Shown here in pieces: positions 1 through 7,284 of a stretch of 7,284 bases of DNA (the first letter of the stretch is position 1; the number at the start of each line of letters is the position of its first letter). The stretch is from a virus (taxonomy: Duplodnaviria > Heunggongvirae > Uroviricota > Caudoviricetes): positions 1 to 7,284 of the IMG/VR virus record IMGVR_UViG_3300029745_000310; one strand, 5' to 3'. Under the pieces are notes generated by a model. That model was not told the DNA's origin. It did not search any database and saw nothing but the letters and a program-made list of their open reading frames with translations. The position numbers and the translations under genes are program-made.

Positions 1-1164
1 TTATGCTTTCTTTGCATCCTCAAAAACCTCAGGGTGGGACAAATTTGGGACATCGTCACCCAATATGTCGTCAATTTTCCTCGCGTGCTCTGTCAAATGA
101 TTAGGTGCAAGGTGTGCGTACCTACGCACCATTTCGATAGACTCCCAGCCGCCCATTTCCTGAAGTACTGACAGTGGTACACCTGACTGAATTAACCAAC
201 TGGCCCAGGTATGGCGGAGGTCATGAAAACGGAAATTTTCAATTCCTGCCCGACGACATGCTGTTAACCACGATGTGTTATAGTCCAGGCGCATCTTTCT
301 GATGCTTGGTGTCATTGTCCCGTCAGGCCTTCTGGCAGCAGTGGTATAAACAAACACCCAGCGGTGATGTTTGCCTATTTGATCACGCAACACCTTGCAG
401 GCAGTGTCATTCAGTGCGACCCCAATAGCGCGGTTTGACTTACTGTCTTCAGGGTTTACCCAGGCAACACGTCGCTGCATATCGATTTGTTGCCACTCCA
501 GATTAATAATGTTTGATCTCCTCAGGCCAGTTGCCAGTGCAAATTTAACTACAGATTTCAGGGGATCAGAACATGCATCAATGAGTCTCCTGGCTTCTTC
601 TTTTTCCAGCCATCTCACGCGTTTGTTTTTTACGGCAGGTATTTTGATTACAGGTGCTTTTTCAAGCCATTTCCAGTCTCGCTCTGCGGCGCGCAGAATA
701 GCCTTGATCATTGCCAGGTGTGTTGCTTTTGTTTGCGTGCTCACCGATTTAGGTATATAGGCTGGTGGTTCTTTCCCTTTTCTTAATGCAGCCTCCACCT
801 GCAACTTCCATCTCTCCTTTGTTTTTCGGTTATACGCTTTGCTGATAACTGAGTAGATCATTGCCTCCGATATATCCTTAATCCTTATTCCCTCGAAATG
901 CTCAATCCAGAATGCGATTCTGGATTTATCGGAATCGATGGATTTCTTGTCGGCTTTTTCCTCAAGCCATCTCAGGCAGGCTTCTTCGAAAGTGACATCT
1001 GGCATATCCCCCAGTCTGTCTACTCGCCAGAGTTCTGCTTTTCGCTTGTCGTGCAACTCCTGAGCTTGCCGCTTGTCCTTTGTGCCAAGAGACTCCTTAA
1101 TTCGCTTCCCGCCCGGGAGCGAGTACGAGGCGTACCATATTTCACCTCTGCGGAAGAGTGACAT
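1..1164 (-). CDS. intD: Phage tyrosine integrase (IntD/IntR-like, lambdoid prophage)
   Basis: 387-aa ORF with ATG at 1164..1162 preceded by SD-like AGAGGAAAG. N-terminus [12 protein letters not shown] and C-terminal catalytic region [11 protein letters not shown] ... [15 protein letters not shown] (Arg/His/Tyr active-site pattern of tyrosine recombinases) match my recollection of the E. coli cryptic-prophage integrases IntD/IntR. Stop codon is the first three bases of the window. Confidence 0.93.
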
Positions 1165-1724: not shown

Positions 1725-2420
1725 CTATCGCCATTGCTCCCCAAATACAAAACCAATTTCAGCCAGTGCCTCGTCCATTTTTTCGATGAACTCCGGTACC
1801 ATTTCGTCAAAAACCTCCATGTATTTTTCATCCCGTTCGACCACGACATAATGCAGGCCTTCACGCTTCATACGCGGGTCATAGTTGGCAAAGTACCAGG
1901 CATCTTTTCGCGTCACCCACATGCTGTACTGCACCTGGGCCATGTAAGCCGACTTTATGGCCTCGAAACCACCGAGCCGGAACTTCATGAAATCCCGGGA
2001 GGTAAACGGGCATTTCAGTTCAAGGCCATTGCCGTCACTGCATAAACCATCGGGAGAGCAGGCGGTGCGCATACTTTCGTCGCGATAGATGATCGGGGAT
2101 TCAATAACATTTACGCCGGAAGTGAACTCAAACAGGGTTCTGGCGTCGTTCTCGTACTGTTTTCCCCAGGCCAGTGCTTTAGCGTTAACTTCCGGAGCCA
2201 CACCGGTGCAAACCTCGGCAAGCAGGGTGTGGAAGTAGGACATTTTCATGTCAGGCCACTTCTTTCCTGAGCGGGGCTTTGCTATCACGTTGTGAACTTC
2301 TGAAGCGGTGATGACGCCGAGCCGTAATTTGTGCCACGCATCATCCCCCTGTTCGACAGCTCTCACGTCGATCCCGGTAACGATATCCGTCTGATGCGTG
2401 AACGTGATGGACGTAACCAC
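1725..2420 (-). pseudogene. exoD: Lambda Exo-family 5'-3' exonuclease (Red-alpha/YqaJ-like), N-terminus replaced, no ATG start
   Basis: Translation from about 2377 down to the stop at 1725 ([30 protein letters not shown] ... [11 protein letters not shown]) is near-identical to phage lambda Exo as I recall it. The first ~10 codons of lambda Exo (MTPDIILQRT) are replaced by unrelated sequence, and the frame has no in-frame ATG upstream of the homology; the only candidates are GTG at 2420 (no SD) and TTG at 2540. Body appears otherwise intact, so it could still be expressed from a non-canonical start. Confidence 0.75.
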
Positions 2421-2429
2421 CGCGACATG

Positions 2430-2615
2430 TGTGTACTGTTCCGCTGGGCCTGCCAGGACAACTTCTGGTCCGGTAACGTGCTGAGTCCGGCCAAACTCCG
2501 CGACAAGTGGACCCAGCTCGAAATCAACCGGAACAAGCAACAGGCTGGCGTGACAGTCGGCAAACCAAAACTCGACCTGACAAACACTGACTGGATTTAC
2601 GGGGTGGATCTATGA
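2430..2615 (+). pseudogene. Replication initiator O, C-terminal remnant only
   Basis: Plus-strand frame ends ...[38 protein letters not shown] with TGA at 2613..2615 overlapping the P start in an ATGA junction, exactly the lambda O/P arrangement. Homology is secure from about 2502; the left boundary (about 2430) is approximate. No N-terminal DNA-binding domain or ori iterons are present. Confidence 0.7.
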
Positions 2616-3313
2616 AAAACATCGCCGCACAGATGGTTAACTTTGACCGTGAGCAGATGCGTCGGATCGCCAACAACATGCCGGAACAGTACGACGAAAA
2701 GCCACAGGTACAGCAGGTAGCGCAGATCATCAACGGTGTGTTCAGCCAGTTACTGGCAACTTTCCCGGCGAGCCTGGCTAACCGTGACCAGAATGAACTG
2801 AACGAAATCCGCCGCCAGTGGGTGCTGGCTTTTCGGGAAAACGGGATCACCACAATGGAACAGGTTAACGCTGGAATGCGCGTAGCCCGTCGGCAGAATC
2901 GACCATTCCTGCCATCACCCGGGCAGTTTGTCGCCTGGTGCCGGGAAGAAGCATCCGTTACCGCCGGGCTGCCAAACGCCAGCGAGCTGGTTGATATGGT
3001 TTACGAGTATTGCCGGAAGCGCGGGCTGTATCCGGATGCAGAGTCTTATCCGTGGAAATCAAACGCGCACTACTGGCTGGTTACCAACCTGTATCAGAAC
3101 ATGCGGGCCAATGCGTTGACTGACGCGGAATTACGGCGCAAGGCTGCCGATGAACTGTCCTGTATGACCGCACGAATTAACCGTGGTGAGGCTATACCTG
3201 AACCAGTAAAACAACTTCCTGTCATGGGCGGTAGACCTCTAAATCGTGCACAGGCTCTGGCGAAGATCGCAGAAATCAAAGCTAAGTTTGGGCTGAAAGG
3301 AGCAAGGGTATGA
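2612..3313 (+). CDS. P: Lambda-type replication protein P (DnaB helicase loader)
   Basis: 233-aa ORF MKNIAAQMVNFDREQMRRIANNMPEQYDEKPQVQQVAQIINGVFSQLLATFPASLANRDQNE ... AKIAEIKAKFGLKGARV, near-identical along its length to phage lambda P as I recall it. Start overlaps the O-remnant stop (ATGA); stop overlaps the ren start (ATGA at 3310..3313). Confidence 0.93.
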   Translation: MKNIAAQMVNFDREQMRRIANNMPEQYDEKPQVQQVAQIINGVFSQLLATFPASLANRDQNELNEIRRQWVLAFRENGITTMEQVNAGMRVARRQNRPFLPSPGQFVAWCREEASVTAGLPNASELVDMVYEYCRKRGLYPDAESYPWKSNAHYWLVTNLYQNMRANALTDAELRRKAADELSCMTARINRGEAIPEPVKQLPVMGGRPLNRAQALAKIAEIKAKFGLKGARV

Positions 3314-3612
3314 CGGGCAAAGAGTCAATTATTCATTACCTGGGGACTCATAAGAAATTCTGTGCGCAGGACGTTGCCGCGGTAACAGGCGCAACGGTAA
3401 CCAGCATAAATCAGGCTGCGGCTAAAATGGCGCGGGCAGGAATCCTAGTCGTTGATGGTAAGGTCTGGCGAACGGTGTATTATCGGTTCGCTACCAGAGA
3501 AGAATGGGAAGGAAAGGTGAGCACGAATTTGATTTTTAAGGAGTGTCGCCAGAGTGCCGCGATGAAACGGGTATTGAGGGTATATAAAAGAACATCAATG
3601 GGTACACAATGA
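3310..3612 (+). CDS. ren: Ren protein (lambda ren homolog)
   Basis: 100-aa ORF MTGKESIIHYLGTHKKFCAQDVAAVTGATVTSINQAAAKMARAGILVVDGKVWRTVYYRFATREEWEGK ... closely matches lambda Ren as I recall it. Strong SD AAGGAG at 3297..3302, and the ATG overlaps the P stop. Confidence 0.88.
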   Translation: MTGKESIIHYLGTHKKFCAQDVAAVTGATVTSINQAAAKMARAGILVVDGKVWRTVYYRFATREEWEGKVSTNLIFKECRQSAAMKRVLRVYKRTSMGTQ

Positions 3613-3629
3613 TGAAACAGGTGAGTTGA

Positions 3630-3664
3630 GTTCAAACTGTAGTACAATTCTCTCCAGTTTGAAC
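3630..3664. repeat. Perfect 10-bp inverted repeat GTTCAAACTG-N15-CAGTTTGAAC between ren and emrE
   Basis: Read directly: 3630..3639 GTTCAAACTG and 3655..3664 CAGTTTGAAC are exact reverse complements, separated by a 15-nt spacer. The right arm ends one base before the emrE SD (AGGAAA 3665..3670). No U-tract follows, so it is not a classic intrinsic terminator. Confidence 0.6.
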
Positions 3665-3679
3665 AGGAAAGAATATGCT

Positions 3680-4012
3680 ATGAATCCTTATATTTATCTT
3701 GGTGGTGCAATACTTGCAGAGGTCATTGGTACAACCTTAATGAAGTTTTCAGAAGGTTTTACACGGTTATGGCCATCTGTTGGTACAATTATTTGTTATT
3801 GTGCATCATTCTGGTTATTAGCTCAGACGCTGGCTTATATTCCTACAGGGATTGCTTATGCTATCTGGTCAGGAGTCGGTATTGTCCTGATTAGCTTACT
3901 ATCATGGGGATTTTTCGGCCAACGGTTGGACCTGCCAGCCATTATAGGCATGATGTTGATTTGTGCCGGTGTGTTGGTTATTAATTTATTGTCACGAAGC
4001 ACACCACATTAA
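3680..4012 (+). CDS. emrE: Small multidrug resistance (SMR) efflux transporter EmrE
   Basis: 110-aa product MNPYIYLGGAILAEVIGTTLMKFSEGFTRLWPSVGTIICYCASFWLLAQTLAYIPTGIAYAIWSGVGIVLISLLSWGFFGQRLDLPAIIGMMLICAGVL.INLLSRSTPH matches E. coli EmrE as I recall it, including the essential Glu14 (AILAEVIG). ATG at 3680 with SD AGGAAA 9 nt upstream. The listed ORF start at 3626 is a TTG extension. AT-rich relative to the P/ren backbone. Confidence 0.96.
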   Translation: MNPYIYLGGAILAEVIGTTLMKFSEGFTRLWPSVGTIICYCASFWLLAQTLAYIPTGIAYAIWSGVGIVLISLLSWGFFGQRLDLPAIIGMMLICAGVLVINLLSRSTPH

Positions 4013-4043
4013 AAATAATTTGTTTTTAAACGACTAAAATATG

Positions 4044-4084
4044 GAGGCTCGTATATTTATATGGGCCTCGTTTTATGCTTTTTG
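4044..4084 (+). terminator. Possible intrinsic terminator downstream of emrE
   Basis: GAGGC (4044..4048) ... GCCTC (4065..4069) short stem followed by the T-rich run GTTTTATGCTTTTTG (4070..4084). Stem is short and loop long, so this is weak. Confidence 0.35.
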
Positions 4085-4112
4085 TTAATGTCTTTAGTTT
4101 TTATTCATTCTT

Positions 4113-4267
4113 TTGTGCTTTCAAGATTATGGTGTAAGAAAATTGCAATACGATTATTGTTGTATATTCAAGATAATGTGACCTTAATTGTCTTTTTAAA
4201 TAAAAATTAAACAAAAATCATATCTCACCACTAAGGTTTATAAAAGCATACTTTAGCAGGTGTCACC
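4113..4267 (+). promoter_or_regulatory. AT-rich upstream region of the recombinase gene with a direct repeat (TTCAAGAT at 4120..4127 and 4167..4174)
   Basis: 255-bp intergenic region of very low GC. TTCAAGATtATGgTG (4120..4134) and TTCAAGATaATGTG (4167..4180) form an imperfect direct repeat 47 bp apart. A possible sigma70-like pair is GTGACC (4178..4183) and TAAAAT (4201..4206) with a 17-bp spacer. SD AGGTG at 4258..4262 precedes ATG 4268. The promoter assignment is a guess. Confidence 0.3.
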
Positions 4268-5794
4268 ATGAAAAAAGCCATAGCATATATGCGATTTTCA
4301 TCACCAAGTCAGATGTCTGGTGATTCATTAAACCGCCAGAGAAGGCTTATTACTGAATGGCTAAAGGTAAATAGTGATTATTACCTTGATACCGTAACGT
4401 ATGAAGATTTGGGGTTAAGCGCATTCAATGGAAAGCATGCACAATCAGGAGCTTTTTCGGAATTTTTAGATGCTATAGAACATGGTTATATATTGCCAGG
4501 GACTACATTGTTAGTTGAAAGTCTGGACAGACTTTCAAGAGAAAAAGTCGGTGAAGCGATTGAGCGTCTGAAATTGATTTTGAATCACGGTATTGATGTT
4601 ATAACTCTTTGCGATAATACAGTCTATAATATTGACTCATTGAATGAGCCATATTCATTAATAAAAGCCATACTTATAGCACAAAGGGCAAATGAAGAAA
4701 GCGAGATAAAGTCAAGTCGGGTTAAATTATCATGGAAGAAAAAACGGCAGGATGCACTGGAGTCAGGCACGATTATGACGGCGTCTTGTCCGAGATGGCT
4801 CTCATTGGATGACAAAAGAACGGCTTTTGTTCCAGACCCCGACAGGGTGAAAACTATTGAGCTAATTTTTAAACTCAGGATGGAAAGGCGCTCATTGAAT
4901 GCAATAGCCAAGTATTTAAATGATCATGCTGTAAAGAATTTCTCAGGAAAAGAAAGTGCATGGGGACCTTCTGTAATTGAAAAATTATTAGCGAATAAAG
5001 CTCTGATAGGTATATGCGTACCTTCATATCGTGCAAGAGGTAAAGGAATAAGTGAAATCGCTGGCTATTATCCCAGAGTCATATCAGATGATTTGTTTTA
5101 CGCTGTGCAGGAAATTCGGTTGGCACCTTTTGGTATTAGCAATAGTAGCAAAAATCCTATGTTGATAAATCTACTTCGAACAGTTATGAAGTGCGAGGCT
5201 TGTGGTAATACCATGATTGTTCATGCGGTATCTGGAAGTTTGCATGGCTATTATGTTTGTCCGATGAGAAGACTGCATCGATGTGACAGGCCATCAATAA
5301 AGAGAGATTTGGTTGATTATAATATCATTAATGAGTTGCTTTTTAATTGTAGTAAAATCCAACCAGTTGAAAACAAGAAAGATGCTAATGAAACTTTAGA
5401 GTTGAAAATTATTGAGCTCCAGATGAAAATTAATAATTTAATTGCTGCATTATCTGTTGCGCCTGAAGTTACCGCTATAGCAGAAAAAATCAGAGTATTA
5501 GATAAGGAATTACGAAGGGCTTCTGTATCATTAAAAACTTTGAAGAGTAAAGCGGTGAGTTCACTTGGTGATTTTCATGCTATTGACTTAACCAGTAAAA
5601 ATGGGCGAGAGCTATGTCGTACACTTGCCTATAAAACATTCGAAAAAATCATAATCAATACAGATAATAAAACCTGTGATATCTATTTTATGAATGGCAT
5701 TGTTTTTAAACACTATCCTTTAATGAAAACAATATCCGCCCAGCAGGCGATAAGTACTCTCAAATATATGGTTGATGGTGAGGTTTATTTTTGA
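4268..5794 (+). CDS. ybcK: Large serine recombinase family protein (YbcK-like; resolvase catalytic domain, recombinase domain, zinc ribbon, coiled coil)
   Basis: 508-aa ORF. N-terminal AIAYMRFSSPSQ fits the serine-recombinase nucleophile motif (compare YARVST.Q), and LLVESLDRLSR matches the conserved D-R-L-x-R catalytic motif. Central CPRWLS region, a Cys cluster CEACGNT ... YYVCPMRRLHRC (zinc ribbon), and a heptad-like stretch LELKIIELQMKINNLIAAL. Length and position immediately after emrE match my recollection of DLP12 ybcK (putative recombinase). Strongly AT-rich. Confidence 0.9.
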   Translation: MKKAIAYMRFSSPSQMSGDSLNRQRRLITEWLKVNSDYYLDTVTYEDLGLSAFNGKHAQSGAFSEFLDAIEHGYILPGTTLLVESLDRLSREKVGEAIERLKLILNHGIDVITLCDNTVYNIDSLNEPYSLIKAILIAQRANEESEIKSSRVKLSWKKKRQDALESGTIMTASCPRWLSLDDKRTAFVPDPDRVKTIELIFKLRMERRSLNAIAKYLNDHAVKNFSGKESAWGPSVIEKLLANKALIGICVPSYRARGKGISEIAGYYPRVISDDLFYAVQEIRLAPFGISNSSKNPMLINLLRTVMKCEACGNTMIVHAVSGSLHGYYVCPMRRLHRCDRPSIKRDLVDYNIINELLFNCSKIQPVENKKDANETLELKIIELQMKINNLIAALSVAPEVTAIAEKIRVLDKELRRASVSLKTLKSKAVSSLGDFHAIDLTSKNGRELCRTLAYKTFEKIIINTDNKTCDIYFMNGIVFKHYPLMKTISAQQAISTLKYMVDGEVYF

Positions 5795-5817
5795 GTAATA
5801 ATCACTTTTTCAACCGT

Positions 5818-5896
5818 GCTATAGTAAGAAAGTTAGGTAAGTACAATAAAATTATCTATCCTGAACGAAGCGTCCTGAGCTATGGTTTTACTATAG
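5818..5896. repeat. Inverted repeat GCTATAGTAA ... TTACTATAG (palindromic CTATAG cores) downstream of ybcK and upstream of the 99-aa ORF
   Basis: Read directly: CTATAGTAA at 5820..5828 and its exact reverse complement TTACTATAG at 5888..5896, separated by 59 bp. A related GCTATGG lies at 5878..5884. The region sits where GC content rises again, at the right edge of the AT-rich block. Confidence 0.5.
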
Positions 5897-5905
5897 GGAC
5901 TGCCA

Positions 5906-6205
5906 ATGGATGCTGGCGTTCTCGTTCTAGCAGTTCAACAATACCCAATCACAAAACAATTCACTGATAACAAACTTTGTGCACGTGCTTGGTTATGGCG
6001 AGCAGGTGATGTGATGTTAACTGCCTGCCAGAACGTTACTCCACTACTTCAGGTTGCGGAGCACCGCGAAGCCGGCCGCTTTACTTCTATCGAGCAAGAA
6101 TATCCCCAGATACTCAACAGAGCGCGAGCAATCCTCGCCAGAGAAACGGCACATGTAAAATTCCAGCCGTGGCTGGATGATAAGTGGAGTCGAGTGTTAC
6201 CATAA
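5906..6205 (+). CDS. Hypothetical protein (99 aa), unknown function
   Basis: ATG at 5906 with SD-like AGGGA 7 nt upstream; a stem-loop plus T-tract terminator follows at 6250..6288. GC content is higher than the flanking AT-rich DNA. No motif I recognise (MDAGVLVLAVQQYPITKQFTDNKLCARAWLWRAGDVMLTACQ...). Confidence 0.5.
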   Translation: MDAGVLVLAVQQYPITKQFTDNKLCARAWLWRAGDVMLTACQNVTPLLQVAEHREAGRFTSIEQEYPQILNRARAILARETAHVKFQPWLDDKWSRVLP

Positions 6206-6249
6206 TTCCGTCAGAATCTGTTCCAATAAAGTCACTAGTTAGAAATACT

Positions 6250-6288
6250 GCCAGCATTCTACGATGACGGAAGTGCTGGCATTTTTTG
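6250..6288 (+). terminator. Intrinsic terminator-like hairpin followed by T-tract
   Basis: GCCAGCA (6250..6256) pairs with TGCTGGC (6274..6280) across a 17-nt loop and is followed by ATTTTTTGG (6281..6289). It lies 45 bp downstream of the 99-aa ORF stop. Confidence 0.5.
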
Positions 6289-6405
6289 GGTAATATGCGA
6301 GTCCATTTCATAAAATACGGGTGCTGTAAACTGGACGATATAATCTAAAATATACCATTACCAGTAGCGTTCAAATCGCTATGTGCCGATACGGATAAAA
6401 TTATA

Positions 6406-6436
6406 TTGATTGTGCACATACCTTATTGGATATTAC
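6406..6436 (+). promoter_or_regulatory. Candidate sigma70 promoter for the 169-aa ORF
   Basis: TTGATT (6406..6411) as -35, about 17-19 bp spacer, then GATATT/TATTAC (6429..6436) as -10, roughly 30 bp upstream of ATG 6464. Sequence-pattern guess only. Confidence 0.3.
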
Positions 6437-6463
6437 TGAGGGGTATTTATATAAGGTGTAACG

Positions 6464-6973
6464 ATGATGTGGAACTTTGACAGTGCCGACTTAAGTGCAA
6501 TAGCAGCAGGTATTTCTGCGTTTGGCACATTAGCCGCAGCGGGGTCGGCGCTTGCAAGTTGGTACACGTCAAAAAAAGCGCTGCAGCTACAAAATAGAGT
6601 TTACCTTTATGAGTCTTTAAAGGCTTGCGCTGAGAGAGCCAATTCATCAGCTAAAGATAAGCGCGGATCTGAATGGAGCGTTAATGATGCAGCGGATATC
6701 ATCAGGTGCCTAGTACGGGCGATGGAGATCATCAAGCAGGATAGCCAGCAGAAAGAAGGTAATCAGGCATTAATGTTGAAACAGTACTTTGTTAATCTGC
6801 TAATAATGGAACTGTACGAGGAAGTTCATAACGGTGATGCGGCTGATTCTGTTTTTAAAAGTACGGAACCTACACAAGTACTTGATAACTTATGGAGCAA
6901 ATGGCAGGAGGCTATAGCTTTTTTTGATATTTGGAATTACCCAGTTGCGACTGAGGAAGACTTGGCAGACTAA
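6464..6973 (+). CDS. Hypothetical membrane-anchored protein (169 aa): N-terminal hydrophobic helix plus acidic helical soluble domain
   Basis: Tandem ATG ATG at 6464/6467 with AAGGTG 5 nt upstream. Residues about 10-33 (LSAIAAGISAFGTLAAAGSALASWY) form a single predicted transmembrane or signal-anchor segment; the remaining ~135 aa are charged and helical in composition. Preceded by an AT-rich intergenic region with its own promoter-like sequence. No homolog I recognise. Confidence 0.6.
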   Translation: MMWNFDSADLSAIAAGISAFGTLAAAGSALASWYTSKKALQLQNRVYLYESLKACAERANSSAKDKRGSEWSVNDAADIIRCLVRAMEIIKQDSQQKEGNQALMLKQYFVNLLIMELYEEVHNGDAADSVFKSTEPTQVLDNLWSKWQEAIAFFDIWNYPVATEEDLAD

Positions 6974-7053
6974 TTTTCAGCACATTTGATTTCCAATAAT
7001 CAACCAGCCATAATCATGCCATTGGGGCCTGAACAACTCCGGTGACTTCTGCG

Positions 7054-7284
7054 CTAAACGGGGACGTTTATGCGCACATACAATCCAACCTCTCTTCTCC
7101 ATTCACAGATGCAGAAATGCACCTGCGATATTTTGCATCCAGCGTTTGATCTCTGCGGAGGTGAAGCGTGAACCTCCCACAAGATGGTATCAAATTGCAT
7201 CGCGGTAACTTCACCGCTATCGGTGTCAGCGCCAGTGATATAAGACGGTAATTCACCATTTGGATTGTCCGCTCCACCCAACAT
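7054..7284 (-). CDS. Partial ORF, 3' end of a convergent gene truncated by the window edge; unknown function
   Basis: Frame is open from the window edge (7284) to TAG at 7056..7054: ...[36 protein letters not shown].... Its amino-acid composition looks more protein-like than the competing overlapping frame (7068..7277). Nothing further to support it. Confidence 0.3.

Follow-up and report, generated by a model that had tools for sequence, protein, structure and literature searches.

The large serine recombinases (LSRs) SprA (YokA) of SPbeta, the LI/A118 integrase, and the Bxb1 and PhiC31 integrases are each the sole integrase of their own phage, with known attP and attB sites and directionality factors. 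They have a common domain order, in which a catalytic domain is followed by helix E, a recombinase domain and a zinc ribbon, and a coiled coil is inserted in the zinc ribbon. In the TnpX/TndX family of LSR transposons (Tn4451, Tn5397), the LSR lies with a resistance gene in a discrete element that has defined ends and excises as a circle. The Pin/Gin/Hin invertases, among them PinE, PinQ and PinR of E. coli cryptic prophages, are ~190 aa long, carry a C-terminal helix-turn-helix and flank an invertible segment with inverted repeats. IS607-family serine transposases are small proteins with an N-terminal MerR-like helix-turn-helix.

Here we analysed a stretch of 7,284 nucleotides from a tailed-phage record, hereafter the window. 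Its ORF at 4268..5794 is ybcK, a gene that is already known, annotated and uncharacterised; the ybcK annotated in E. coli ML35 matches the window DNA at 100% identity and that of Z217-2 at 99.8%. YbcK of the K-12 prophage DLP12 (UniProt P77698, b0544) is the same gene. The K-12 and window alleles are 95.7% identical in DNA and differ at 14 of 508 amino acids, including position 14, which is Gly in K-12 and Ser in the window. Upstream of ybcK the two loci have the same neighbours, ren, emrE and ylcJ, whereas downstream K-12 carries ybcL-ybcM and the window carries an antirepressor fragment and a phrog_1779 gene. The earlier note on this DNA had stated that its second recombinase had no assigned substrate. 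This agrees with the literature searched, in which we found neither a substrate nor a recombinase assay reported for YbcK.

Two other LSRs are informative relatives. Ec07 (HAJ7447475.1), from E. coli, is 40% identical to YbcK over 410 aa, has the same N-terminal signature, Y-x-RFS...GDS-x-RRQ, and is the closest YbcK relative with defined att sites, these being the computationally predicted attP and attB published by Durrant et al. 2022 (PMC10083194). The main text of that paper does not name Ec07, and none of the four YbcK accessions that we looked for is in its LSR atlas supplement. Gp53 of the Burkholderia phage Bcep176 aligns with YbcK over 94% of its length at 27% identity, and its identity to the Bu30 protein of Durrant et al. 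is 68%. Like YbcK it is a phage LSR, in this case of a proteobacterial siphovirus. It is the sole annotated integrase-like gene of that phage, between the early and lysis/tail modules, and is presumably its primary integrase rather than an extra recombinase like YbcK.

Domain architecture and family membership of YbcK

The gene and the domains that it encodes are as follows.

4268..5794, plus strand: ybcK, large serine recombinase of 508 aa (ORF; three Pfam domains)
4277..4750, plus strand: resolvase-type catalytic domain with helix E, residues 4-161 (PF00239, invariant columns, TP901-1 alignment); its key residues are Arg9, Ser11 (nucleophile position), Asp87, Arg88 and Arg91
4838..5119, plus strand: DNA-binding recombinase (RD) domain, residues 191-284 (PF07508; 4kis and SprA 9dxh alignments)
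5171..5338, plus strand: zinc-ribbon domain, residues 302-357, with Cys309, Cys312, Cys331 and Cys339 (PF13408)
5369..5557, plus strand: predicted coiled-coil arm, residues ~368-430, two long helices (AlphaFold2, Foldseek)
5597..5791, plus strand: C-terminal helix/beta-sheet region, residues ~444-508 (alignment, AlphaFold2 model)

We found that the ORF runs from an ATG start without an internal stop, and that all three Pfam domains lie above their curated cut-offs (Resolvase, E 1e-18; Recombinase, E 2.3e-14; Zn_ribbon_recom, E 8e-8). Both results agree with the earlier description of an intact 508-aa LSR free of frameshifts. In the YbcK family profile, YxRFS aligned with YTRVST of the TP901-1 integrase and LDRLSR with LDRLSR, and Ser11 is placed at the nucleophile position because of the first of these alignments. 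The Ser11 motif, the DRLSR motif and the zinc-ribbon cysteines had also been read as intact; in an alignment of 21 orthologues reaching down to 29% identity, R9, S11, D87, R88, R91, C309, C312, C331 and C339 were all invariant. Among 102 more distant relatives, no substitution of D87, R88 or R91 was seen, and at least 90% kept R9, S11 and the four zinc-ribbon cysteines. The window allele reads SSPSQ where the K-12, O157, EC32 and phage 4A7 alleles read SSPGQ, a position that is variable across the family in the orthologue alignment. Within the YbcK clade the C-terminal region keeps the motif CDIYxxNG...FPL.

An AlphaFold2 model of YbcK (mean pLDDT 85.5) predicted the full LSR architecture, in which an alpha/beta catalytic domain leads through a long helix E (128-166) into a recombinase domain built of helices, followed by a beta zinc ribbon. 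Antiparallel long helices in the model (368-397 and 402-430) would form the coiled coil that had been proposed from the sequence. Foldseek searches with the model retrieved full-length LSR-DNA complexes, the best of them SPbeta SprA 9dxd/9dxh (E 7e-20 and 2.5e-17), with Bxb1 9iu2, PhiC31 9tep and LI integrase 4kis as further matches. SprA was also the best PDB profile match (E 1e-12), and residues 167-466 aligned to 4kis, the C-terminal domain of the A118/LI integrase. The profile was needed, since a profile-free PDB search with the N-terminal domain alone as a single sequence gave nothing meaningful. YbcK has the domain order of SprA, LI/A118, Bxb1 and PhiC31, and their coiled coil within the zinc ribbon, at a sequence identity of only 14-19%. 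Unlike these four, it coexists with a tyrosine integrase.

PHROG 95 'integrase' matched YbcK with E 1e-120, and phrog_2371, whose function is not known, also matched residues 348-508, while PHROG 125 'DNA invertase' matched only the N-terminal residues 1-258. YbcK has the catalytic domain of a serine recombinase in common with PinE, PinQ and PinR. A small DNA invertase of the Hin/Gin/Pin type was nevertheless rejected, given the 508-aa length, the RD, zinc-ribbon and coiled-coil domains and the lack of flanking inverted repeats; no alternative tail-fibre segment adjoins ybcK either. We also rejected XisF, the fdxN element excision recombinase (NF041201; 48 bits against a cut-off of 375), and the IS607-family serine transposase (NF033518; 13 bits against a cut-off of 110, in the catalytic core only). 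YbcK carries three features of the LSR family, a catalytic domain, an RD with a four-Cys zinc ribbon, and a coiled-coil arm, the last as a prediction. Sequence and model together suggest that YbcK is an apparently working, catalytically competent LSR of the phage-integrase type. Its relationships to PHROG 95, Bcep176 gp53 and Ec07 indicate that it is descended from integrases.

Prophage setting, leader and the emrE neighbour

The surroundings of ybcK in the window comprise the following features.

1..1164, minus strand: intD-type tyrosine integrase of the prophage (Pfam PF00589, E 1.5e-45)
3577..6984, plus strand: variable lambdoid cargo slot, from the ren 3' end to a promoter-like site upstream of ybcN (pairwise BLAST, six loci)
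3680..4012, plus strand: emrE, SMR efflux pump gene; its position upstream of ybcK is invariant in E. coli (Pfam PF00893, annotation)
4013..4267, plus strand: AT-rich leader between emrE and ybcK
4044-4069: terminator-like hairpin in the leader
4061-4210: ylcJ, small ORF in the leader
4226..4262, plus strand: imperfect inverted repeat CACCACTAAGG-N14-CTTTAGCAGGTG, overlapping the Shine-Dalgarno-like AGGTG
5906-6205: antirepressor C-terminal fragment
6464-6973: phrog_1779 protein

The tyrosine integrase at the left end, not YbcK, integrates the window prophage. By tblastn it is 87% identical to an integrase near DLP12-type genes in two other loci (L012 and L013), and its K-12 counterpart adjoins tRNA-Arg. 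In the infective lambdoid phage 4A7, ybcK is found alongside both int and xis. These observations support the earlier view that the prophage has its own integrase and that ybcK is redundant in this respect. YbcK as the primary phage integrase was set aside: ybcK is internal, between ren and nin-type genes, ~3-10 kb from the tyrosine integrase. The cargo slot, which in the window holds emrE, ylcJ, ybcK, the antirepressor fragment and the phrog_1779 gene, has nucleotide-sharp edges (3576/3577 and 6984/6985) and contains different genes in other prophages. Its right edge was considered as a recombination site and rejected, as position 6985 falls on the -35 box of a promoter-like element, TTGATT-N17-CATAAT, that is conserved.

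A published K-12 study assayed the untranslated ybcK leader as a possible Rho/NusG-dependent terminator that keeps ybcK mRNA low, and this mRNA was raised in Rho and NusG mutants (PMC4150792); ybcK would therefore normally be silent in a lysogen. The window allele of the leader is ~95% identical, and we infer that termination may operate there as well. The inverted repeat at 4226..4262 may act on translation as a hairpin or serve as a site for protein binding, an assignment in which we have little confidence. The predicted RNA fold (z -2.1 in the window allele versus -0.8 in the K-12 allele) gives weak support for masking of the ribosome-binding site, and an ungapped palindrome scan gave nothing significant at this position.

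Next, we considered how widely ybcK is kept. It is present in 26% of complete E. coli genomes, its copy number among them tracks prophage number, and 1,398 of the 1,424 carriers (98% of copies) have it at near full length. Divergent E. coli alleles gave a dN/dS of 0.07-0.08 at a dS of 0.12-0.18, indicating that ybcK is under strong purifying selection. The window prophage itself is defective: exo is fused to a truncated O, the right side is cut by an IS, and immunity and the N region are lost. Because of this last loss, ybcK is most likely an unexpressed passenger in the window. One could extend this to the gene as a whole and regard ybcK as a functionless fossil, an intact, not yet decayed remnant of an integration module. 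Besides the defective state of the prophage, such a reading could draw on the failure to find an att site or rearrangements, on the lack of a known clear phenotype, and on a literature report that single recombinase mutants, presumably including ybcK, left excision of the H47 island unaffected. It is difficult to reconcile with the low dN/dS, the 98% of copies near full length, the catalytic and zinc-binding residues that do not vary even in orthologues at 29% identity, and the presence of ybcK on infective phages, and we consider it very unlikely.

The earlier note had also suggested that YbcK might mobilise emrE, which would make the two genes a small LSR transposon, or catalyse the inversion or excision of DNA at about 3600-6000. 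The layout of emrE and ybcK is superficially like that of the TnpX/TndX-type transposons. The emrE, ylcJ and ybcK genes form a low-GC block (30-40%, compared with 50-57% on the left), and prophages integrated at two different sites, argU and icd, have this block in common; at both, the ybcK-carrying prophages sit beside their tyrosine integrase. However, emrE also occurs without ybcK. In the fliE-locus genome sampled (L007), emrE lies with ybcL-ybcM beside fliE and ybcK is missing, and about 2,700 further records matched only at 90-95% identity, as this divergent fliE-locus emrE allele does. In none of the 21 orthologue loci tested did we find a homologue of emrE, and homology between orthologous loci ends 18-223 bp upstream of the LSR ORF. 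The left edge of the block is a general slot boundary that is used by unrelated cargo too.

Evidence for a local rearrangement was equally lacking. In E. coli, ren-emrE-ylcJ always precedes ybcK, and the emrE-ylcJ-ybcK junction was collinear in 1,398 genomes, the number with near-full-length ybcK. None of these complete junctions had host DNA joined just upstream of ybcK, there were no excision variants among them, and the single truncated junction that was inspected is an IS1 deletion. Neither defined ends of the TnpX/TndX kind nor significant flanking repeats were found. Mobilisation of emrE by YbcK and local inversion or excision are thus unlikely, and the sequence comparisons already disfavour this proposal to the point that we give it almost no credence.

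Orthologues and the search for attachment sites

Full-length orthologues with 40-61% identity were found in Atlantibacter, Yersinia, Erwinia, Ewingella, Citrobacter, Kluyvera and Pantoea. They occupy accessory slots or prophage ends; some directly follow a tail-fibre assembly gene, the usual position of an invertase, and several of those at prophage ends face host DNA. One Pantoea dispersa prophage combines a terminal tyrosine integrase with an LSR located between the replication genes and Q. Relatives of YbcK are also present on plasmids and beside a relaxase. Related loci are homologous only over the ORF and its immediate flanks: homology begins 18-223 bp before the ORF and extends 0-56 bp past it, or +404 bp in a single case. 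Such gene-sized blocks have about the extent that a unit of attP plus gene would need. No partner gene or directionality factor was common to all LSR contexts. A pair of genes for an 80-aa and a UmuD'-like protein lies beside the LSR in three genera and is absent from E. coli. The esterase downstream in 4A7/EC32 and the hydrolase downstream on an Enterobacter plasmid were rejected as a shared partner, their likeness being a general alpha/beta-hydrolase similarity only.

We then searched for sites on which YbcK might act. Between the ybcK flanks, the inverted-repeat search gave one AT-rich 15/20 match only, and a general repeat search gave nothing convincing; the best repeat, 16 nt at 94% (4369-4384 versus 5795-5810), lacks conservation in K-12. 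When the flanks of 20 orthologues were scanned for 46-bp palindromes, with shuffles as the control, few hits were significant and their positions were not consistent. Neither in E. coli nor in the orthologues did significant palindromes or repeats adjoin the gene, and there were no terminal repeats or shared end motifs. Breakpoints downstream of ybcK are scattered (~5803/5833, 5860, 6012, 6075, 6195, 6222 and 6280), a pattern that resembles nested deletions or replacements, and one shared site for them was rejected. Hybrid att junctions were absent from the 1,398 genomes, and near ybcK no att-like repeat or palindrome was conspicuous.

The attP core of Ec07 is ~40 nt upstream of the Ec07 ATG; we confirmed the hybrid attL, with its crossover at this distance, in two independent loci (L029 and L066). 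One locus of the YbcK clade, L015, has the core 11-mer of Ec07, CTTCAGTATAA, the CTTCAG half of which ends 38 nt upstream of the ATG; among the ybcK-type upstream regions compared, it is the only one to share this core. Upstream of ybcK itself no Ec07-type core or half-sites were recognisable. The two genes also differ in position: Ec07 lies at the edge of its element beside host DNA, inside a target gene, whereas ybcK is internal to the prophage, with emrE-ylcJ upstream in every genome.

Possible roles of YbcK

From these data we tentatively favour the possibility, which we rate somewhat below even, that YbcK is a portable attP-integrase cassette, silent in lysogens. The cassette would consist of a short upstream region and the ORF, exchanged as a single-gene module by temperate phages of the Enterobacterales, and would lodge in accessory slots, here the ren-nin cargo slot and elsewhere positions after tail-fibre genes or beside the attachment site. 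During infection or induction, antiterminated early-rightward transcription might read through the leader, so that ybcK would be expressed. YbcK could then recombine attP with attB, providing a second, Int-independent route of integration. Its phage-side site would be expected just upstream of the gene, as in Ec07, and its bacterial site may be absent from E. coli. None of the 1,398 junctions carries host DNA. If YbcK integrates phages at all, there is evidently no such integration in sequenced E. coli, and the strong purifying selection is then left without an explanation. The failure to identify an att site, or a palindrome or repeat beside the gene, also counts against the cassette, as do two further points: an upstream attP does not predict the host-facing orientation of the end-located orthologues, and mosaic junctions at gene borders are normal in phages and need no att site.

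The gene-sized blocks could alternatively reflect a selfish element, in which ybcK and very short flanks are mobile, like a serine-recombinase insertion sequence. Such an element would hop from one accessory slot to another in temperate phages and plasmids and be kept by its own transposition, not by any benefit to the phage. Consistent with this, the blocks lie in unrelated contexts (Atlantibacter, Ewingella, Pantoea, Pluralibacter/Pantoea dispersa), several of them end no more than 4 bp from the stop codon, and relatives occur on plasmids and beside the relaxase. Furthermore, K-12 (emrE-ylcJ-ybcK-ybcL) and the fliE-locus island (emrE-ybcL) differ by a 2.1-kb indel that contains only ylcJ, ybcK and ~300 bp. 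This indel is, however, not a clean site-specific insertion, as 17 bp are replaced and its ends are not inverted repeats. The left boundaries of the blocks vary from -18 to -223 bp, again without terminal repeats or shared end motifs, the left neighbour is fixed in the 1,398 E. coli genomes and copy number follows that of prophages, while phage mosaicism alone yields junctions at gene borders. We regard transposition of this kind as unlikely.

The selection on ybcK, despite the lack of integration events attributable to its product, could also be explained if YbcK acted in trans on DNA outside its own phage, as a conflict or defence function in the cargo slot. Its targets could be the host chromosome, which it would rearrange, or competing phages or resident prophages, which it would recombine or disable. 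In other strains the ren-ybcN slot carries other cargo, including a SIR2-family protein, and a recent paper links phage resistance to small serine recombinases encoded by cryptic prophages of E. coli (PMC12529663). On the other hand, no defence model of PADLOC-DB 2.0 matched YbcK, ylcJ, the 99-aa ORF, the 169-aa ORF or emrE, no partner gene is conserved across contexts, and a gene that is silenced in lysogens fits poorly with constitutive defence. Overall, we think it quite unlikely that YbcK has such a role.

Going beyond the cassette proposed above, the YbcK clade might represent distinct, portable single-gene serine-integrase cassettes that are strongly selected in lambdoid and other temperate tyrosine-integrase phages for a purpose other than routine integration. 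This broader claim is doubtful at present. Possible purposes would be a second, orthogonal integration route for hosts without the primary site, or action in trans during infection on the DNA of the host, of prophages or of rival phages. If it were true, a ~70-bp upstream site together with the ORF would be among the most compact natural integration modules known.

As things stand, ybcK is an ordinary annotated gene of unknown role and not a new kind of system, and few site-specific recombinases of E. coli K-12 other than YbcK are without a known substrate. The comparative data narrow the question, indicating that YbcK is selected, is unlinked to emrE and leaves no local rearrangements, and that its relatives include real integrases with a phage site just upstream of the gene. 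If YbcK is inactive, the strong purifying selection needs another explanation. If it is active with a short, gene-adjacent attP, it would be a compact new orthogonal integrase for the engineering of Enterobacteriaceae, and lambdoid phages would carry a back-up integration system.

Domain architecture and conservation of YbcK

Two recombinase genes were examined, with the following features:
4268..5794, + strand: ybcK, an uninterrupted ORF of 508 codons with an ATG start
YbcK residues 4-161: Resolvase domain (Pfam, E 1e-18)
YbcK residues 191-284: Recombinase domain (Pfam, E 2.3e-14)
YbcK residues 302-357: Zn_ribbon_recom domain (Pfam, E 8e-8)
1..1164, - strand: tyrosine integrase (PF00589, E 1.5e-45)

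All three Pfam domains scored above curated thresholds, and PHROGs assigned YbcK to phrog_95, labelled 'integrase' (E 1e-120). In an alignment with 20 full-length orthologues (29-61% identity), R9, S11, D87, R88, R91, C309, C312, C331 and C339 were invariant. In a wider alignment of 102 sequences, down to ~27% identity, D87, R88 and R91 were still invariant, and R9, S11 and the four cysteines were retained in at least 90%. In the catalytic domain of TP901-1 integrase, YTRVST aligned with the YxRFS motif of the family profile and LDRLSR with its LDRLSR motif, and the C-terminal two thirds of the profile aligned to SPbeta SprA (E 1e-12). An AlphaFold2 model built from the 102-sequence alignment (mean pLDDT 85.5) predicted a catalytic alpha/beta domain and the long helix E, followed in order by a helical recombinase domain, a zinc ribbon of beta structure, a pair of long helices (368-397 and 402-430) and a small helix/sheet end. 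Its first Foldseek matches in the PDB were full-length complexes of large serine recombinases (LSRs) with DNA, namely SPbeta SprA (9dxd/9dxh), Bxb1 (9iu2), PhiC31 (9tep/9rah) and LI integrase (4kis), the fold matching over its full length.

The earlier note had described an uninterrupted 508-residue LSR with intact catalytic motifs and zinc-ribbon cysteines, accompanied by a tyrosine integrase. The ORF, domains, alignments, model and integrase together confirmed this observation in every detail: S11, R9, R88 and R91 are conserved rather than substituted in the family, and the structure prediction proposed as a check returned the LSR domain order, including the two long helices. By sequence and predicted fold, YbcK thus has the structure that defines an LSR, with a catalytic domain, a recombinase domain, a zinc ribbon and a coiled coil, and the model and alignments show a protein with all that activity requires.

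Other assignments failed. YbcK is not a primary phage integrase, because it lies away from the element edge and is not the sole integrase. Size, domains and the absence of an invertible segment exclude a Hin/Gin/Pin invertase, and the scores for XisF (48 bits, cut-off 375) and IS607 transposase (13 bits, cut-off 110) fell below threshold. Codon 14 (window 4307-4309), three residues past the nucleophile position, encodes Ser14 (SSPSQ) in the window, against Gly14 in the alleles of K-12, O157, EC32 and phage 4A7; as this position varies across the wider family, the substitution is probably neutral.

In the literature searched, ybcK is an uncharacterised gene to which no paper assigns a substrate, and the earlier note was correct that its annotation goes no further than putative recombinase. 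One paper lists it as a 'predicted recombinase' (PMC9504249), and another cites YbcK to illustrate three-domain relatives of CisA (SpoIVCA) from Bacillus subtilis (PMC6637259). Over-expression of ybcK improved sabinene tolerance by a mechanism that is not known (PMC7181518). The untranslated region 5' of ybcK has been assayed as a Rho/NusG-dependent terminator and ybcK mRNA is up in Rho and NusG mutants; K-12 ybcK is thus kept silent by Rho-dependent termination in its leader (PMC4150792).

Distribution of ybcK and its cargo slot

The window is an E. coli prophage, lambdoid, defective and DLP12-like. It is 99.8% identical to strain Z217-2 over positions 1727-7224 and 100% identical to strain ML35 over positions 3300-6500, and in both strains the gene is annotated 'ybcK: recombinase family protein'; the window ybcK is 95.7% identical to the K-12 allele. 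The gene is carried by 1,424 of 5,426 complete E. coli genomes, near full length in 1,398. YbcK also occurs at 97-98% protein identity in the isolated lambdoid phages Lambda_4C10, 1W, 4A7, PhiR34_1 and PhiR70_1. Phage 4A7 carries a tyrosine integrase and excisionase beside an icd fragment, and ren-emrE-ylcJ-ybcK-esterase between its replication genes and ybcN. Therefore ybcK is a passenger in viable phages with an integration system of their own. YbcK does not serve as the integrase of its prophage. Between divergent E. coli alleles dN/dS was 0.066-0.082 at dS 0.12-0.18, indicating strong purifying selection on the coding sequence. This contradicts the view that ybcK is a functionless fossil, which we consider very unlikely.

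In lambdoid prophages ybcK occupies a variable cargo slot running from the ren 3' end to a promoter-like site 5' of a 33-codon ORF and ybcN.

Content of the cargo slot
Window: emrE, ylcJ, ybcK, P22AR C-terminal fragment, phrog_1779 protein
K-12: emrE, ylcJ, ybcK, ybcL, ybcM
O157:H7 86-24: only emrE, a small ORF and ybcK
EC32 and phage 4A7: an additional alpha/beta hydrolase on the opposite strand
Prophages without ybcK: unrelated genes, e.g. a YajG-family lipoprotein, hypothetical proteins, a SIR2-family protein

Both edges are sharp to the nucleotide. At the left edge (3576/3577) sequences diverge after ...CGGGTRTTG, within the last ren codons; at the right edge (6984/6985) all six loci resume with TTTGATT, the -35 element of a conserved TTGATT-N17-CATAAT. 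Because unrelated cargo uses the same edges, these boundaries belong to the slot and not to ybcK.

Several other elements were observed here. In the right flank (6985-7050), six prophage variants share the hexamers of the promoter-like TTGATT-N17-CATAAT, but each has its own 17-nt spacer; next, just 5' of the 33-codon ORF and ybcN, comes a conserved hairpin, which in most variants reads CCGGAGCC TGAACAA CTCCGG. Site and hairpin could be a regulatory element of a nin-type operon. Sharing the slot with ybcK, positions 6464-6973 encode a 169-aa protein with an end-to-end phrog_1779 match (E 1e-102) and no Pfam or PADLOC match. Just 5' of the emrE start, a 13-nt inverted repeat at 3630-3664 (GTTCAAACTGTAG ... 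CTCCAGTTTGAAC, 12/13 complementary) that the divergent fliE-locus allele shares may serve emrE as an operator or 5'-UTR hairpin.

The window prophage has a deletion that removed the whole stretch between exo (1725-2540, - strand) and a 3' fragment of O, and is therefore cryptic. Within the region 2331-2615 the joint lies near 2378/2379, exactly where E. coli matches break; Z217-2, identical here, bears the annotation 'Replication protein O, missing N-terminus'. Intact relatives, phage 4A7 for one, carry recombination, immunity, N and cro/cII genes in the missing stretch. With the immunity and N region gone, ybcK is probably not expressed in this prophage. Lambdoid homology ends at 7224, inside the ybcN start, and the last 60 bp (7225-7284) match sequences on many E. 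coli plasmids, some annotated IS3-family transposase; an insertion sequence probably cut the prophage at 7224/7225.

Junctions around ybcK in E. coli genomes

The earlier note had suggested that YbcK could invert or excise a local segment, or mobilise emrE. A 651-bp probe (emrE 3' end, ylcJ and ybcK 5' end; at least 80% coverage) was covered in 1,398 complete E. coli genomes, the same count as for near-full-length ybcK, and in no genome was other sequence joined 5' of ybcK. The one truncated junction inspected was an IS1-mediated deletion extending to appY-ompT. Breakpoints 3' of ybcK were scattered (~5803/5833, 5860, 6012, 6075, 6195, 6222 and 6280), and O157 variation included a simple internal deletion, indicating decay and mosaic replacement rather than a single crossover site. 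Repeat searches around ybcK found no direct or inverted repeats above chance. At the sequence level, these 1,398 genomes show no rearrangement footprint of YbcK.

In E. coli EC0885, a sampled genome (locus L007), emrE lies with ybcL-ybcM beside fliE, without ylcJ-ybcK, in a prophage remnant adjoining yedK. This emrE is a divergent allele (~92% identity to the prophage allele, dS 0.34-0.38), and for ~2,700 more records the only match to the query is at an identity typical of it. The remnant (L007 4745-7260, between fliE and yedK) holds emrE-ybcL-ybcM, the 33-codon ORF region and a quuD fragment, its left host junction corresponding to window position ~3598, just 5' of emrE. Relative to this arrangement, K-12 has an extra 2.1-kb segment comprising ylcJ, ybcK and ~300 bp, whose junctions are not clean and which lacks terminal symmetry. 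By this comparison emrE is not tied to ybcK. Together, the intact junctions, scattered breakpoints, lack of repeats and emrE without ybcK fail to support either emrE mobilisation or local inversion and excision, and we regard a role for YbcK in moving emrE or as a local switch as barely plausible.

Relatives with att sites and possible roles

Full-length orthologues (40-61% identity) were found in Atlantibacter, Yersinia, Erwinia, Ewingella, Citrobacter, Kluyvera, Pantoea and others. None of the 21 orthologue loci tested yielded an emrE homologue. The contexts of the orthologues sort into three groups:
Context 1: between replication genes and the Q antiterminator, in a prophage with a tyrosine integrase at its end (Pantoea dispersa; Atlantibacter RC6, downstream of a P homologue and cytosine methylase)
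Context 2: directly after a tail-fibre assembly gene, at a prophage end near host genes (Atlantibacter by ssrA, Erwinia by lepA, Ewingella, Yersinia between two prophages)
Context 3: either first gene beside host DNA or plasmid-borne (adjoining yedK/SRAP genes in Enterobacteriaceae G50 and Citrobacter pasteurii; adjoining a tyrosine integrase in Pluralibacter; close to a relaxase or plasmid-borne in Pantoea and Enterobacter)

Pairwise, homology between related loci was limited to the LSR ORF with 18-223 bp upstream and 0-56 bp downstream (one exception, +404 bp downstream). These comparisons therefore show a gene that moves between phages as a gene-sized, single-gene module. That it is a selfish single-gene element strikes us as unlikely. 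A role in trans, in host or phage conflict, is unlikely, and no PADLOC match was found.

Some loci had further peculiarities. At the tail-fibre end in Atlantibacter, Ewingella and Erwinia (L010 9092-9684; L094 9212-9845; L092 12207-12772), a small-gene pair adjoins the LSR, preceding it in two genera and following it in the third. The first gene encodes an ~80-aa protein (54-58% identity between genera) and the second a 107-130-aa protein starting MGFPSPAADY, which resembles UmuD from its self-cleavage site and is presumably UmuD'-like. In Enterobacteriaceae G50 (L015) and Citrobacter pasteurii (L018), both at ~7996-8010, poly-A tracts (A8 and A5) after the LSR ATG put the start codon out of frame with the remaining ORF, with an in-frame stop two codons upstream; E. 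coli ybcK has an in-frame A6 tract there. This could reflect a frameshift pseudogene, sequencing error or slippage-dependent expression. In Candidatus Pantoea alvi (L028 7256-7693 and 10152-10859), a complete P flanks the LSR and a 112-aa ORF on one side and a partial, degraded second copy of P (residues ~77-223) on the other. The two P copies share 75% DNA identity, suggesting that two prophages fused or that an insertion brought part of P along.

Among more distant relatives is gp53 of Burkholderia phage Bcep176 (27% identity), a phage in which no other gene is annotated as integrase-like. Durrant et al., in their LSR atlas, list several enterobacterial relatives with predicted att sites (PMC10083194), among them Ec07 (40% identity to YbcK over 410 residues), and Ec03 and Kp03 (32-33%), Kp03 being reported as a highly active landing-pad recombinase (PMC10083194). 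Ec07 is the closest relative with a defined att. Its listed predicted attP ends 11 nt into the ORF, which places the attP core ~40 nt upstream of the start codon. The predicted attL hybrid was present upstream of the Ec07-type gene in both independently fetched loci (Shigella flexneri L029 and Escherichia sp. L066), reading attB left arm to ...GTCTTCAG, attP right arm TATAATGGGT.CCTAAACAC..., then ATG. Within the YbcK clade, L015, which adjoins yedK, shares the Ec07-type 11-mer CTTCAGTATAA. The CTTCAG half of this 11-mer stops 38 nt before the ATG in L015 and 39 nt before it in L029. No Ec07-like core was recognisable upstream of E. coli ybcK.

Because the Ec07 attP lies within ~70 bp upstream of its ORF, roughly the length of flank carried along with the gene, the YbcK module is, by analogy, probably an attP-plus-integrase cassette. 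During infection or induction, N-antiterminated early-rightward transcription would read through the Rho-dependent leader, so that the recombinase would be made then and could provide a second integration route. We favour this full reading, of a cassette expressed on infection or induction as a second route, only tentatively. What weakens it most is that E. coli genomes show no YbcK-mediated integration to which the purifying selection could be traced. Taken together, ybcK is real, intact and annotated already, and belongs to a well-known enzyme family. The new information is comparative; it reveals no new kind of system, and is useful for designing experiments.
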